A stretch of DNA of 64,000 nt from Sedimentisphaerales bacterium (GTDB lineage Bacteria; Planctomycetota; Phycisphaerae; Sedimentisphaerales; SM23-30), in assembly GCA_963666285.1 (NCBI GenBank), contig OY762711.1. One strand, given 5' to 3'. Of this stretch, positions 8,647 to 15,075 are shown piece by piece (positions within the stretch are counted from its first letter, which is position 1; every line of letters starts with the position of its first letter). Below the pieces are notes generated by a model that worked only from the letters and a program-made list of their open reading frames with translations, did no database searches and was not told where the DNA came from. Both the position numbers and the translations under genes were made by a program.

Positions 8647-8661
8647 GAAAAAGCCTTTCTT

Positions 8662-8703
8662 TTAGTCCTATCTAATTTTATAAGGCCAGCCTAACTTTGT
8701 CAA
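8662..8703 (-). promoter_or_regulatory. Sigma70 promoter overlapped by two DtxR-like boxes
   Basis: Minus strand TTGACA(8703-8698)-17 nt-TAAAAT(8680-8675); TTAGTCCTATCTAA (8662-8675) and TAAGGCCAGCCTAA (8681-8694) resemble the TTAGG..CCTAA DtxR core. Confidence 0.7.
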
Positions 8704-8949
8704 TATTTTTTTATTTTTTGGAGGTTTCAAGGGAGAGGTGTTTTTCATATATTTAGCACCAGGCGAAACTTGGAGCAGAGCAGGCATAGCCTGCACCAGA
8801 CCTCAGCAGCCTCGCTGCGTTCGGACCAGACATAGTCTGGACCAGACCTCGCTTTGCTCGGTAACGAATAGAGATTGTCAATTCTAGAGGGCAAATCAGA
8901 ATGATTTGCCGAGGCGTGATACAAATATTCAGTTTTTCAAAGAGCAAAA

Positions 8950-9417
8950 TTTATGTAAAAGACGAAGTATTCGTCGTTGTTAAGTTTTAACGAGAGCAGT
9001 TTTTTTGTCGGTAATCATTTTTATTAGCTCTCTACAATTGGACGGTATGTCGAAAGTGCGCTGATTTTTTTGATGGGATGGTTGGTTTGGAAGTTTGTAA
9101 GGTGTTGTGGATAAGCGGGATAATAATTTTGAAGATTTTAGATTTTCGCGATTTGGTGGATGTAAAAACGAGATGATTTTTTCGAGAAAATCAGGGGCCA
9201 GGGATCAGGTTTCAGATGCCAGGGAAGGTTGCTCGCTACCGCTCGCGGGTAATTGATGGGTAACGGGAGGTGTGCGGAAAGGTAACGGGACAGCGCGGAG
9301 GTGGGACGGCGGTGAAAAGGGGTGCGGATTTGAACGGCGGGGAATTGCGGGCTGCGGACAGTATACGGCGGAACGTTGAATGGGTGCGGCGGTATACGGA
9401 CTGGAACGAAGCGGAGA
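8950..9417 (+). repeat. ~470 bp non-coding leader-like repeat, copy A
   Basis: Aligns end to end with the reverse complement of 42573-43040; identical blocks include TTATTAGCTCTCTACAATTGGACGGTATGTCGAAAGTGCGCTGATTT. Confidence 0.9.
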
Positions 9418-10619
9418 AGCGACGAGCTACGCTAAATGAAAATGAATAATGAAAAATGAAAAGTTGAGGTGTCCGCTTCGCGGACGGCTTGTTTTAAACG
9501 GCTACGCCGAACGACGGAAGGTCGTTAGAGATTAGAGCAGGTGAGCAGAAGAACAGGCAATCAGCAGCGAGCCAACAGCGGCCAGCGAGCAGCCAAGCTG
9601 CTAGAGATTAGAGCAGATGACAGTGGAACAGGAGGAAGATAAATACGTGCTACGCACTCTGGCACATCATTGGACAAGTCCAATGATGTGAAGGTGTCGC
9701 TACGCAACCTGTTTGAATAATGTGCCGAGCTCCGCCTGAGGCGGATTTCAATCAGCTCAGCGTTCCCAGGAGTGAAGGTGTCGCTACGCGACCTGTTTTA
9801 AACGGGTTCGGCGAAAAGCAGAACCATCAATGAACGCGGATGAACACTGATAAGATGTTGCTAACGCGACGGATGTTTCATGCTCAGTGTTACCAGAGGT
9901 GAAGGAGGGGTTAAAAAACGGAATGAAATTGAAGAGTGCGGGGATATAAGAACGAATGCATGGCGGGTTCAGGGAAGAGTTGCGGCGGGGAGGGGATTTT
10001 GCGGATATTTACGTAAGTTGTTATTTTTGGATTGTGGGCGGACCAGATGCCGCGAAGCGGCATCTGAAGTCTGAAGTTTGAAGTCTGAATTCTGAAAAGA
10101 TGGTGTTCGCCTAGCGGCTCACAACTTATTTTAAAGCTGTTGCATATTTAAATTCAGAATTATGAAAAAGATTGGCAACCACGAAAATTCACGAAAGAAC
10201 ACGAAAAAAAATACTGTTGCTCGCAGAGGACGCAAAGATCGCAAAGAATATTACCTGGCCATGAAGGGAATGCGTTAAATTTAAAATTAAAAATTAAGAA
10301 TTGAGAATTAAAAAGAACTGAAAAATACAAGGCTGCGATAAGTACCAATAATTATAAGATGGCTTGCTTCAGCCTTCGTTAAAGCTATGGTTCGACAAGA
10401 CCGGACGTGATTAATAATTCTGAACCACTGATGCACGCGGATGGACACCGATAAGAAAATGTTTAGATAACTTGACGGTAAATTTTACAACCACGAAAAT
10501 ACAATGAAAGCCAGAATATTCCTGTAGCATGGCTTGTGTTATAATACACAATAATTTTAGCACGAGCTGTCACAGGGACGCTCAAATATTTAACCAATTT
10601 TATACGGAGTATTCTGGCT

Positions 10620-11666
10620 ATGAAGACTATTATGTCAATTGATTTAGGAAAATTCAAGAGTGTAGTTTGTTTTTATGAGGTAAAAAGCTGTAAGGCTATA
10701 TATAAGTCGTTTAAGACTAACCCTCAAGAGCTTCATGACCTGGCAGTATCTCACCCTGCTGATCTTATTGTATTTGAGGCTTGTGATATCATAGGCTGGA
10801 TTTGTGACCTTTTTGACACCCTGGAATTAAAATATGAAGTGGCAAATACTAATACCGGCGAATGGTCTGGCAGAAAATTGAAGAAGAAAACAGATAAAAA
10901 GGATGCATTTTGGCTGGCCAAGCGTGCTGCTTTAGGAGATTTATCAACTGTCTATGTTCCTAAAAAGGAAATTCGAGAGAAACGATCTTTAATTAATTAT
11001 CGCCAGAGCCTTACAGAACGGATAACTCAGGTAAAAAATACTATTCGTTCTTTATTAAATGCCCAGGCGTATTCGTTGCCGTCAGGCAGAAAGTGCTGGT
11101 CTAAGCAGAATCTGGAACAGTTAAGAAGTATGGCTATGCCAATGGATAAAGTTAAACCAGATGAGCTCTGGAAAGGCAATCTATGGAGCGAGCTTATATT
11201 ACTGGAACAATTAACAGACGCTTTGCAAGTAGTTGAAGATAAACTGGAAGAGTTAAATAGTACTGATGAAAAGGTAAAACTATTACAGACTGTTCCCGGA
11301 GTTGGCCCACGTCTGGCAGAGGCAGTTGCAGCTTATATTGATGATCCACATAGATTTAAGAATTGCAAACAAGTTGGCAGCTATATTGGTATGACACCGC
11401 GTCAGTACCAATCAGGTAATACAGACCGTCATGGGCGGATAAGTAAATATGGCAATAGGTTATTGCGAGCATTACTTGTTGAGGTTTGCTGGCTGGGTTT
11501 GCGTTGGAATCCATGGATAAAAGAAACATACGAAAGAATAAAGAGGGGAAGTAAAACTCGTGCAAAAATAGCGATAGTAGCTACAGCCCGACGGTTGTTC
11601 GTACGATTGTGGGCGATGATGCGAGATGGGACAAGTTGGCAGATGCCTGAATTGCAAAGTGTTTGA
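10620..11666 (+). CDS. IS110 family transposase/recombinase
   Basis: DEDD motifs IDLGK, VFEAC, KTDKKDA; C-terminal TVPGVG, YQSG, GRISKYGN. Confidence 0.95.
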   Translation: MKTIMSIDLGKFKSVVCFYEVKSCKAIYKSFKTNPQELHDLAVSHPADLIVFEACDIIGWICDLFDTLELKYEVANTNTGEWSGRKLKKKTDKKDAFWLAKRAALGDLSTVYVPKKEIREKRSLINYRQSLTERITQVKNTIRSLLNAQAYSLPSGRKCWSKQNLEQLRSMAMPMDKVKPDELWKGNLWSELILLEQLTDALQVVEDKLEELNSTDEKVKLLQTVPGVGPRLAEAVAAYIDDPHRFKNCKQVGSYIGMTPRQYQSGNTDRHGRISKYGNRLLRALLVEVCWLGLRWNPWIKETYERIKRGSKTRAKIAIVATARRLFVRLWAMMRDGTSWQMPELQSV

Positions 11667-11714
11667 TACCAATATAAGTAAAATATAAATATTACCTATG
11701 ATTTTGCCCGATTG

Positions 11715-11845
11715 AAATCGATACGGAACCTTGGTCGTGCATTTGGGTTTTGAACCTGACACGAAAATTAAGCCGTATCGCAATATATATAATGGAACCA
11801 TGGCGTAAAATACAGCCTCGGACACTCCGGATAGAAAGATGAAAC
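11715..11845 (+). ncRNA. Putative bridge RNA/seekRNA of IS copy 1 (approximate core)
   Basis: Stem CGATACGG/CCGTATCG (11719-11726/11773-11780) encloses TCGTGCATTT and CACGAAAATT, which match the two strands of the target; a second loop carries ATAGAAA matching the donor end. Confidence 0.75.
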
Positions 11846-12663
11846 AATCAGGTAAATAATGATTCGCTACGCGAAAATTGTTTTAAATAGGTTTATCGCA
11901 TAAGGTCAAAAAGCAAAAAACGAGGCGGTGTAAAACCGCCCCGGCTTCTTGACAACTTGCAACGCTCGGGTTGCTCCTCAGCAGAGCCCTATCCTTTGCA
12001 AGATAAAGGAATTATAGCAAAAATGAATAAAATTAGAAAATTAATGTTGCATTCTGGCTTCATAGAAATTCACGAAAGAACACGAAAAAAAATACTGTTG
12101 CTCGCAGAGGCCGCAAGGTTCGCAAAGTATCATTTCAAATATGGCACTGACCGACACGGGCAGGCACAGGCAAACACGGTAGGCAGCAATCAGCAATCAG
12201 CAATCAGCTACGAGCGGCGAGCGAACAGTGAAGAGGAAATACGTGCTGCGCACTCTGGCACATCATTGGACAAGTCCAATGATGTGAAGGTGTCGCCTGG
12301 CGGCGAGGATGATTAAAAAATAATGGGGAGGCTTGTTTATTCACCCGGTTGAAACCGGGGGCTACCAAAAATTAGCAGTCAGCGGCGAGCGATGCTAAGT
12401 GAAAAATGAATAATGAAAAGTGAAAAGTTGAGGTGTCCTGATATACGTTGACATCAGGAATAATTCGCTGTCGCTCACGACTTATTTTTAAGCTGTCGCA
12501 TATTTAAATTCAGAATTATGAAAAAGATTGTCAACCACGAAAATACAATGAAAGCCAGAATATTCCTGTAGCATGGCTTGTGTTATAATACACAATAATT
12601 TTAGCACGAGCTGTCACAGGGACGCTCAAATATTTAACCAATTTTATACGGAGTATTCTGGCT

Positions 12664-13710
12664 ATGAAGACTATTATGTCAATTGATTTAGGAAAATTCA
12701 AGAGTGTAGTTTGTTTTTATGAGGTAAAAAGCTGTAAGGCTATATATAAGTCGTTTAAGACTAACCCTCAAGAGCTTCATGACCTGGCAGTATCTCACCC
12801 TGCTGATCTTATTGTATTTGAGGCTTGTGATATCATAGGCTGGATTTGTGACCTTTTTGACACCCTGGAATTAAAATATGAAGTGGCAAATACTAATACC
12901 GGCGAATGGTCTGGCAGAAAATTGAAGAAGAAAACAGATAAAAAGGATGCATTTTGGCTGGCCAAGCGTGCTGCTTTAGGAGATTTATCAACTGTCTATG
13001 TTCCTAAAAAGGAAATTCGAGAGAAACGATCTTTAATTAATTATCGCCAGAGCCTTACAGAACGGATAACTCAGGTAAAAAATACTATTCGTTCTTTATT
13101 AAATGCCCAGGCGTATTCGTTGCCGTCAGGCAGAAAGTGCTGGTCTAAGCAGAATCTGGAACAGTTAAGAAGTATGGCTATGCCAATGGATAAAGTTAAA
13201 CCAGATGAGCTCTGGAAAGGCAATCTATGGAGCGAGCTTATATTACTGGAACAATTAACAGACGCTTTGCAAGTAGTTGAAGATAAACTGGAAGAGTTAA
13301 ATAGTACTGATGAAAAGGTAAAACTATTACAGACTGTTCCCGGAGTTGGCCCACGTCTGGCAGAGGCAGTTGCAGCTTATATTGATGATCCACATAGATT
13401 TAAGAATTGCAAACAAGTTGGCAGCTATATTGGTATGACACCGCGTCAGTACCAATCAGGTAATACAGACCGTCATGGGCGGATAAGTAAATATGGCAAT
13501 AGGTTATTGCGAGCATTACTTGTTGAGGTTTGCTGGCTGGGTTTGCGTTGGAATCCATGGATAAAAGAAACATACGAAAGAATAAAGAGGGGAAGTAAAA
13601 CTCGTGCAAAAATAGCGATAGTAGCTACAGCCCGACGGTTGTTCGTACGATTGTGGGCGATGATGCGAGATGGGACAAGTTGGCAGATGCCTGAATTGCA
13701 AAGTGTTTGA
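12664..13710 (+). CDS. IS110 family transposase/recombinase (identical protein to 10620..11666)
   Basis: Identical 348 aa translation. Confidence 0.95.
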   Translation: MKTIMSIDLGKFKSVVCFYEVKSCKAIYKSFKTNPQELHDLAVSHPADLIVFEACDIIGWICDLFDTLELKYEVANTNTGEWSGRKLKKKTDKKDAFWLAKRAALGDLSTVYVPKKEIREKRSLINYRQSLTERITQVKNTIRSLLNAQAYSLPSGRKCWSKQNLEQLRSMAMPMDKVKPDELWKGNLWSELILLEQLTDALQVVEDKLEELNSTDEKVKLLQTVPGVGPRLAEAVAAYIDDPHRFKNCKQVGSYIGMTPRQYQSGNTDRHGRISKYGNRLLRALLVEVCWLGLRWNPWIKETYERIKRGSKTRAKIAIVATARRLFVRLWAMMRDGTSWQMPELQSV

Positions 13711-13758
13711 TACCAATATAAGTAAAATATAAATATTACCTATGATTTTGCCCGATTG

Positions 13759-13889
13759 AAATCGATACGGAACCTTGGTCGTGCATTTGGGTTTTGAACC
13801 TGACACGAAAATTAAGCCGTATCGCAATATATATAATGGAACCATGGCGTAAAATACAGCCTCGGACACTCCGGATAGAAAGATGAAAC
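13759..13889 (+). ncRNA. Putative bridge RNA/seekRNA of IS copy 2
   Basis: Same sequence as 11715-11845. Confidence 0.75.
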
Positions 13890-15075
13890 AATCAGGTAAA
13901 TAATGATTCGCTACGCGAAAATTGTTTTAAATAGGTTTATCGCATAAGGTCAAAAAGCAAAAAACGAGGCGGTGTAAAACCGCCCCGGCTTCTTGACAAC
14001 TTGCAACGCTCGGGTTGCTCCTCAGCAGAGCCCTATCCTTTGCAAGATAAAGGAATTATAGCAAAAATGAATAAAATTAGAAAATTAATGTTGCATTCTG
14101 GCTTCATAGAAATTCACGAAAGAACACGAAAAAAAACTGTTGCTCGCAGAGGCCGCAAAGATCGCAAAGAATATTACTTGATCATGAAGGGAGTGGAGTT
14201 AATGAAGGAGAATAGAAGAGCGAAGCATTGCTAAGTGAAAAGTTATTAAGGTGGCCGCCTATCCTTCGACTAGCTCAGGACAGGTCGGTTCACGACTTGT
14301 TTTAAAGCTGTTGCTACGGATTGTAGAAAAAACGGATTGTGGTAAGTTGGGGAAATGGAATTTTGACTGTAACTAATGAGTGGGGTTGCGGTATAAGAGT
14401 GTGTGGTGTGAGTGAAGATGACATCAGGAATAATTTGCTTTCGCGAACTATTTTAAAGCTCCGCAAACACAGAATCTGACGCAAATAACGCACCTGTGAA
14501 TGCTTACAAGAATGAAATGAGATGGAAGCGATTGGCAGGTGGGCAGCTAAAGGCAACGGCTGTCAGCGGACAGCAAGCAGGATGGGATGTTAATTCCACA
14601 TTGTGCTGCGCACTTCGGCACTTTTCAGGCGGAGCTGAAAAGTGGAGGTATTGCCTGGCGGCGAGGCTTGTTACAAATGATGAGAATATCGGGATGGTTT
14701 AGGAGATTTTCCGGTGTGAGTTTGTGTTGAGGGGCTGGTGCGAGTGTTGGTGTTGTTGGGGTGTTGTAAGTGGTTGTATTATAGTGGTTTATGTTGTGGT
14801 GGTTTCGTGTTGGAAATGAAGGCAATGTTTTTTGAATTGCGGCGTCAATTTTGATGGTAAGTGTTTGGGGAATTGGCGTTTATTTGGTATAATACTATTG
14901 TTTTGAGATTGATTTTGTCTTTTGGCCGGGAAAGAACAGTTTTTTCTCCCGGAAGTTAAGTTTTTTAATAATTGCAGTAGAGTTAAGTCTTGTTTTGAAA
15001 AGAAGTTAGAGGATGAAAAACTGAACGGGTGAACAGTTGAGCAGAAGAAAGAAATATGAGTCTGGAGTCATAAAA

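Follow-up and report, generated by a model that had tools for sequence, protein, structure and literature searches.

A probable bispecific bridge RNA encoded behind the transposase gene of an IS1111-type insertion sequence from a Sedimentisphaerales bacterium

Closest Described Systems

The guide RNAs of IS110 and IS1111 elements were described in 2024, and NCBI names the protein family RNA-guided, so the kind of system treated here is already known. For the IS1111 family, seekRNAs have been reported for ISEc11, ISPa11, ISKpn4 and ISPst6 (Siddiquee et al. 2024; PMC11187229). In the account given there, the guide that is complementary to the top strand is placed 5′, which is the reverse of the order in IS110/IS621. 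The bridge RNA of IS621 was described by Durrant et al. 2024 (PMC11208160) and Hiraizumi et al. 2024 (PMC11208158), with the structure deposited as PDB 8wt6. A multi-loop position of the donor-binding nucleotides is noted for many IS1111 elements in the text of PMC11208160. As these sources present them (PMC11187229; PMC11208160), the marks of IS1111 elements are subterminal inverted repeats and a short upstream together with a long downstream non-coding end.

The element described here lies in a window of 64,000 nt, which is the whole stretch of DNA that was analysed, on contig OY762711.1 of the Sedimentisphaerales bacterium assembly GCA_963666285.1. It resembles the IS1111 seekRNA elements, as characterised in PMC11187229, in five respects: a putative RNA gene downstream of tnp, subterminal inverted repeats, a transposase within 330–350 aa, site- and orientation-specific insertion into a repeated sequence and, in the RNA, a top-strand complement guide that is placed 5′. 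It differs from ISEc11, ISPa11, ISKpn4 and ISPst6 in its target and in its transposase, which is distant as judged by a plasmid collection. The other difference from the IS1111 seekRNAs, in the form in which PMC11187229 describes them, is that the donor ends also appear to be matched in the RNA. Bispecificity is a likeness to IS621, as the RNA would carry left and right guides for both target and donor, all overlapping a short core. Unlike in IS621, however, the RNA gene is situated at the opposite end of the element and has the reversed guide order, the strands of a three-way junction, rather than an internal loop, harbour the putative donor guides, the subterminal repeats are long, and the core falls in an A run rather than in CT.

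Nothing about the element is categorically new; it is an additional natural example of an RNA-guided recombinase, and the ISfinder-wide predictions of Durrant et al. (Supplementary Table 5) might list close relatives already. It does offer a natural data set of nine copies with an identical RNA core and five perfect empty sites in one genome, and two off-consensus insertions reveal target positions that are tolerated. Around it stand about 60 homologous RNAs with many guide–target pairs, a three-way junction backed by covariation and a covariance model, and the orthologues are raw material for the engineering of programmable recombinases.

The Insertion Sequence and Its Target Site

Copy A of the insertion sequence occupies 10501–12069 of the window on the + strand (1569 bp, with ends that are ambiguous by the shared AAA(T)). 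A second, identical copy is found at 12545–14113 on the same strand, the two being 2044 bp apart, and contains a match to the bridge RNA model at 13742–13905. The genome (6.35 Mb, four contigs) holds a total of nine copies with 98.98–100% identity, as well as one 35-nt fragment. In terms of annotation, the element accounts for the tandem identical 1.6-kb repeats in this gene-poor, repeat-rich stretch.

The junctions were defined by comparison with an unoccupied target site, CAACCACGAAAATTCACGAAAG, at 10176–10197 (+ strand), inside a dispersed repeat at 10117–10249. With a slash marking the junction, copy A reads ...CACGAAAAT/ACAATG... on the left and ...CATAGAAAT/TCACGA... on the right. The left flank ..ACCACGAAAAT (xxACCACGAAAAT) is present in all nine copies and the right flank is of the TCACGAAAG type in seven, the other two having the related sites ACACAAAAA and AACACGAAAGG; the orientation relative to the site is identical in 9/9. 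The target was delimited to a 20-nt site within a dispersed repeat of ~130 nt, of which 48 BLAST pieces were obtained in the genome. Five perfect empty 20-nt sites and seven canonical filled ones were counted there.

The two junctions share the A run/AAAT and nothing else, i.e. insertion occurs without target duplication. Among the nine copies compared, the right junction lacks the T in one and has one extra A in two, which makes AAAT an upper bound of the core and nothing more. The original prediction, made from the letters of the window, had both guides overlapping an AAAT core; both do span these letters, and AAAT needs to be read as such a bound with the crossover in the A run. All nine copies can be explained by a crossover within the A run, the T then coming from the left end and, in canonical sites, also from the right target half.

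The target holds a direct repeat (CACGA...CACGA). Direct-repeat targets, such as CACGAAx..CACGAAx or CACAGAG..CACAGAG, were seen at L025, L027, L028, L029, L030 and L043 as well as at 10181–10210 of the window, and the family members at such targets insert between the two units. Insertion at this position renders the two guides mutually complementary, so that they pair in single-sequence folds. Such guide–guide pairing could reflect a closed form that the RNA takes when free.

The left subterminal inverted repeat, ATGAAAGCCAGAAT, was read directly at 10504–10517 (+ strand) and its motif is conserved in the family. On the right, the repeat together with CATAG (ATTCTGGCTTCATAG) extends over 12051–12065 (+ strand), with the repeat part at 12051–12063, whose reverse complement agrees with the left repeat at 13 of 14 positions with one 1-nt indel. 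Terminal extensions lie beyond the repeats, ACA on the left and AG plus AAAT on the right, and the inverted-repeat motif is present in most of the homologous loci. In the IS1111 group, such repeats are 7–17 bp long and are followed by short extensions at the termini. The non-coding ends measure 119 nt upstream of tnp and 403 nt downstream, the longer one thus being downstream. By its transposase domains, inverted repeats, 3′ non-coding region, site specificity and C-terminal motif, the element belongs to the IS1111 group, and to judge from its sequence it is an active-looking member.

Assembled contigs of the runs X1–X3 were inspected over 10050–12350. The contig of the insertion sequence has a depth of ~229 versus ~19–28 in the unique neighbours, in line with multiple copies of the element. 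One joint in X3 leads from 10496 to 12066, skipping 1569 letters with four letters that fit either side, and has the form of the empty site. It was dropped as evidence of excision since other empty genomic copies could yield it, an origin to which it can be ascribed because only 26 letters lie on one side. No circle-junction joint is listed in the contigs of X1–X3, in which rare forms are invisible.

The Transposase

The transposase/recombinase gene is an open reading frame of 348 aa at 10620–11666 on the + strand, with its stop at 11664–11666. The protein matches the Pfam domains DEDD_Tnp_IS110 (PF01548, 1.1e-13) and Transposase_20 (PF02371, 1.5e-26), and it scores 213.5 bits against NCBIfam NF033542, ‘IS110 family RNA-guided transposase’, for which the cutoff is 140. 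Its PDB matches are the transposases of IS621 (8wt6, 3.5e-14 for the Tnp domain) and ISCro4 (9t56, 1.7e-15), the relation running via the C-terminal domain. An alignment of 40 homologues shows no variation at D8, E53, D92, D95, S265 and G266. The C-terminal G..P....S/T-G motif is present as GMTPRQYQSG, which aligns to GLTPRRYESG of ISCro4. Based on this motif and the ISCro4 alignment, the invariant residues presumably represent DEDD and the catalytic Ser-Gly, so the protein would be a DEDD + Ser recombinase like that of IS621. In the plasmid collection, the best transposase match was 42% identical and none reached 60%. A single-protein search of genome contigs returned two distant relatives only (28–32%), and these were left unused.

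The RNA Gene

The gene for the putative bridge RNA, or long seekRNA, extends over 11710–11849 on the + strand and is bounded by a closing helix of GATTG (11710–11714) and CAATC (11845–11849). The covariance model R1 (see below) matches 11698–11861 with 90.4 bits (E 4.9e-19), and all nine of its matches in the genome are within the nine copies. The target-binding arm (11719–11780, + strand) is formed by the stem CGATACGG (11719–11726)/CCGTATCG (11773–11780), an inner 3-bp CTT/AAG (11730–11732/11770–11772) that shows covariation in the family, and a hairpin GGTT-TTG-AACC (11746–11756) that can be read directly, all of them on the + strand. The right target guide TCGTGCATTT (11735–11744, + strand) is complementary to the top strand of the target and fits AAATTCACGA at nine of ten positions. 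The left target guide CACGAAAATT (11760–11769, + strand) is identical to the top strand at ten of ten positions and would pair with the bottom strand.

The strings and coordinates that the original prediction had quoted for the stem, the guides and the hairpin are all in the sequence, and the stem, which had been placed about 50 nt after the transposase stop, was measured to lie 52 nt after it. The 10/10 top-strand and 9/10 bottom-strand matches proved to be real when set against the empty site at 10176–10197. The one mismatch of the right guide concerns the base after the core, where the guide has C opposite T or A in 9/9 sites. As a chance control, the 403-nt 3′ non-coding region was shuffled 2000 times with its dinucleotides preserved. 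Of the shuffled sequences, 15/2000 matched the top strand at 10/10 with the core included, 167/2000 matched the bottom strand at 9/10 or better, and 0/2000 had both matches within 60 nt and in the order of the real sequence.

It can be argued that these matches are features of the DNA, such as a captured remnant of an earlier target or a decoy that binds protein, and that the transposase alone recognises the target. The region is indeed AT-rich and the direct repeat CACGA...CACGA of the target makes short matches easier to obtain. This explanation is nevertheless very unlikely, as the two segments are of opposite strand sense and face each other across one internal loop of a helix-rich fold, and as their arrangement was never reproduced by shuffling. 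In addition, G-U and compensatory changes maintain the pairing on one strand only, and in dozens of elements with unrelated targets these two loop positions differ in step with the flanks.

Beyond the target arm, a junction strand (11781–11792, + strand) with a candidate right donor guide, TATA at 11786–11789, leads to the helix P3. This helix spans 11793–11829 (+ strand), pairs TGGA (11793–11796) with TCCG (11826–11829) and encloses a variable stem-loop, CC..GGC (11798–11804)/GCC..GG (11815–11821), whose loop at 11805–11814 contains AAATACA. The interior of the P3 arm differs between family members in both length and sequence. The second single strand of the junction (11830–11844, + strand) carries the putative left donor guide ATAGAAA (11831–11837, + strand), which has the same sense as the right end CATAGAAA.

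The original prediction had drawn a CGGA-CAC-TCCG hairpin in this part of the molecule. The hairpin exists in the sequence and in the single-sequence minimum-energy fold, which also pairs the two target guides with each other and reaches −33.3 kcal/mol versus −20.4 kcal/mol for the family consensus structure. Across the family, however, TCCG pairs with TGGA, and CGGA/TCCG as a conserved feature was rejected in its favour even though the single-sequence fold prefers the hairpin. It is the pairing of TCCG with TGGA at 11793–11796 that puts the putative donor guides in single strands of a three-way junction.

No Rfam 15 family was found in the window at the gathering score, and a search of 10400–12200 at E ≤ 10 gave only mir-754 and a snoRNA, both at chance level. 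Thirty alignment columns vary among the nine copies and none of them lies within 11707–11949, where ~3 would be expected in 140 nt; this invariance of the RNA core is weak evidence in support of an RNA gene.

Among the sequencing runs listed as containing this stretch, none is catalogued as RNA. A scan for promoter-like sites found none directly 5′ of the RNA on the + strand. Co-transcription with tnp and subsequent processing, as published for ISEc11 in PMC11187229, would therefore be the likeliest route to the RNA. The same position directly behind the gene, on the same strand and with no + strand promoter-like site of its own, would also suit an element in the 3′ UTR of the transposase mRNA that terminates transcription, stabilises the message or regulates translation, the target being chosen by other means. 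Yet the scan found no + strand terminator-like site that covers the region, and a 3′ UTR element leaves the covariation of guide with flank and of guide with element end unexplained, which renders this possibility extremely unlikely.

Covariation of the Fold

Relatives were gathered as follows. Within the family and order, a match at E ≤ 1e-20 was present in 9/41 genomes, and within the phylum a match at E ≤ 1e-70 in 3/401, the own genome included in each case. A protein search gave 2759 proteins at E ≤ 1e-40 among 6565 candidates, the closest having 92%, 73% and ~68% identity. Of 602 candidate stretches in metagenome contigs, 487 were found to code for a relative, and the 80 best of these were retained. 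The target-loop pattern was found in 24 elements, this element counted, and 23 of them (the truncated L036 was omitted) were aligned with MAFFT to give alignment A2.

Using a structure drawn by hand, 90.5% of the cells in A2 are paired, versus 29–41% when the 3′ partners are slid by 1–3 columns. Changes on both sides were observed in 17 of the 28 pairs, and the observed values were reached by 0/500 shuffles. RNAalifold independently returned the closing helix, the target arm and, in addition, a long-range helix that had not been drawn. The covariance model R1, which was built from A2, produced 61 matches (56 distinct) in 98 sources, 36 of them in loci outside the seed. In alignment A3 of these 61 matches, 93.5% of the cells are paired versus at most 38% after sliding and 24/28 pairs changed on both sides, although A3 leans towards the model because it was fitted to it. 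P3 is paired in 100% of the cells in A2 and 98.7% in A3, with compensatory changes in three of its four pairs. By these alignments, the 3′ non-coding region holds a conserved structured RNA. The RNA family defined by R1 was found in 16/151 genomes searched in the same order, the own genome included, and in 0/3 of the same genus.

Guides and Target Flanks

The guides were also compared with the flanks of the elements that carry them, after de-duplication of the guides and omission of the rows with insufficient flank. For the top-strand guide, the seven bases farthest from the core were set against the 16 nt that follow the right-end motif. At least 6/7 fit in 25/38 cognate as opposed to 38/1406 non-cognate combinations, and the elements outside the seed behave alike (13/22 versus 18/462). 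For the bottom-strand guide, bases one to six were set against the 20 nt that precede the left-end motif, and at least 5/6 fit in 21/28 cognate versus 96/756 non-cognate combinations. The observed sum was reached by 0/10000 label permutations in each of four tests, figures which overstate the significance because related elements are not independent. Cognate pairs that fit poorly are L025 and L043 (4/7), L035 (5/7), L048 (3/6), and L005 and L037 (4/6).

Individual cases can be inspected as well. In G470, the guide complement AAGGGGTCAG meets the flanks GAGGGGTCAGG and GAAGGGGTCAG, and further genome-derived elements agree. The closest relative with a different site is G017, which has 66% aa identity and two copies. 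Between this element and G017, the bottom-strand guide changes from CACGAAAATT to CGTGAAGATT and the left flank from CACGAAAAT to CGTGAAGAT, with three changes on each side, and G017 shows what appears to be a natural reprogramming. Its top-strand guide fits the right flank AGTGAA; the core-proximal part needs a 2-nt bulge at its two sites.

In these comparisons, the two loop segments covary with the left and the right target halves, on opposite strands. Covariation of guide and target across homologues, named as a check in the original prediction, was thus observed, as the guides track their own flanks. Its reading of the locus as an RNA-guided system of the IS1111 type gains support from the family hallmarks, the conserved structured RNA and this guide–flank covariation.

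The Donor Side and the Proposed Mechanism

A second loop with AAATACA and ATAGAAA had been proposed in the original prediction, with less certainty, to match the donor junction. Both strings do match the inferred circle junction, CATAGAAAT/ACAATG, and one of them stood. In 52/57 rows, the three bases that follow ATAG are those found after CATAG at the right end of the same element, in six classes of right-end triplets (AAG 35, AGG 6, GAG 4, TCG 3, ATG 2, AAA 2). This confirms ATAGAAA at 11831–11837 as the predicted left donor guide, for which the top-strand sense is the expected one. AAATACA (11808–11814) was rejected as a donor guide, as it has top-strand sense and is placed in the terminal loop of the family-variable arm. 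The probability that a 7-mer match occurs by chance in such an AT-rich stretch is roughly estimated to be above 0.1.

The candidate right donor guide was sought on the other strand of the junction. The tetranucleotide located 3 nt before P3 is perfectly complementary to the one preceding the left-end ATG in 31/42 rows, with AGTT/AACT in 28, GGAT/ATCC in two and ATTT/AAAT in one, and three more rows fit with one G-T (34/42); since most donor ends are identical in the family, the donor test rests on few independent classes. Three rows, GAAC/ATCC, CGTT/GAAT and CGTT/TGCG, are failures. In this element the comparison is TATA versus TACA, i.e. 3/4 in an AT-rich sequence.

These results bear on how much of the RNA is used. 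The short seekRNA may function by itself, the target arm at ~11719–11780 guiding both excision and insertion via the target halves that flank the element. The protein would then read the ends via the subterminal inverted repeats, the second domain would be a precursor part or a scaffold, and its matches to the ends would be conserved for other reasons. According to the experiments on ISEc11 that are set out in PMC11187229, an 82-nt RNA comprising the target loop alone was sufficient, transposition reaching 42% with it and 15% with the long form, and a match between guides and donor flanks was required. Moreover, the agreement here is mostly between constants (AAG/AAG in 35/57 rows, AGTT/AACT in 28/42) because conservation is high in the element ends as well as in the junction strands, and the right donor guide of this element fits at only three of four positions. 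Against this, the RNA varies with the right end through six triplet classes with 52/57 exact, and the left end contributes at least three perfect classes (AACT, ATCC, AAAT) and two more with one G-T. Compensatory changes are found in P3, the inner stem and the closing helix, which indicates that the whole 140-nt fold is under selection. Taken together, a target arm that works alone is an unlikely account of this locus.

The 3′ non-coding region of this IS1111-type element probably encodes a bispecific bridge RNA in the long seekRNA form, at ~11710–11849. This bridge RNA would fold as a three-way junction closed by GATTG/CAATC, with one arm forming the loop that binds the target, and with donor guides in the single strands of the junction. 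The 348-aa DEDD/Ser recombinase, when loaded with the RNA, would bring the element, in circular form, to the site CACGAAAA(T)TCACGA. Exchange of the strands within the A run would lead to oriented insertion without target duplication. In this scheme, transcription, processing, assembly of the RNP, the circular intermediate and the chemistry of the reaction are all taken from published systems.

A further proposal concerns the point where the bottom-strand target guide ends. The end of the guide and the start of the left end read ..AG-AA-T and AAACT in the main clade, and ..AT-T and AT in this element, G017 and L028; in the L092 group, a guide GAAT stands against a left end GAATCC. It is conceivable, though doubtful, that the bottom-strand target guide of the present clade reads past the core into the first two bases of its own left end. 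If it does so, the product junction is matched better than the target. This would amount to a bottom-strand ‘handshake’ on the guide opposite to that of IS621 and, in combination with donor guides in a three-way junction, to an IS1111-type strand exchange distinct from that of IS621. A handshake like that of IS621 at the core-distal end of the top-strand guide was rejected, as it has no consistent register across the family.

Other Features of the Region

An extra module of ~190 nt (11862–12040) separates the bridge RNA from the right inverted repeat and is shared only with G017 (78% column identity). It contains a strong intrinsic-terminator-like hairpin with a T run at 11921–11943 on the minus strand, and the hairpin stem is kept in G017 with other letters. 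The module may protect against antisense transcription running into the element; alternatively, it may represent a second RNA. Two minus-strand open reading frames at the right end (24 aa and 51 aa) were dropped, as inspection by eye showed no conservation in G017.

The ISEc11 target, as given in a table of PMC13604230, ends in ten bases that also occur at 12089–12098, 20 nt to the right of the insertion point and within the dispersed repeat that holds it. This ten-base match is probably due to chance.

A promoter-like TTGACG-17-GAAAAT was found on the + strand at 10472–10500 and ends exactly at the left junction. The flank type with this promoter-like site, TTGACGGTAAATTTTACAACCACGAAAAT, is common to copy A, one other copy and two empty sites. 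As the site abuts the left junction, host transcription could enter the element there. At the left end, downstream of the inverted repeat, TGTTATAAT is present at 10537–10545, and a similar string is found at the same place in G020 and G038. We take it to resemble an extended −10 consensus.

The genome also holds a second IS110-family element in four copies (C1:1589823, 2394713, 5026826 and 5746309), whose transposase is 36% identical, and the model R1 has no match in these four copies. Contigs C2–C4 are near-equal in size (65.6, 65.6 and 66.6 kb) beside the 6.15-Mb chromosome, and C4 carries a distant IS110-family gene with 29% identity.

Within the window, the stretch 8650–15050 (~6.4 kb) has no convincing open reading frame and is dense in short dispersed repeats, for example GAAGTCTGAAGTTTGAAGTCTGAATTCTGAAAA, ...TTTTAAAGCTGTTGC and AGCAATCAGCAATCAGC. 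Successive repeat units in this stretch are each interrupted by one copy of the insertion sequence.
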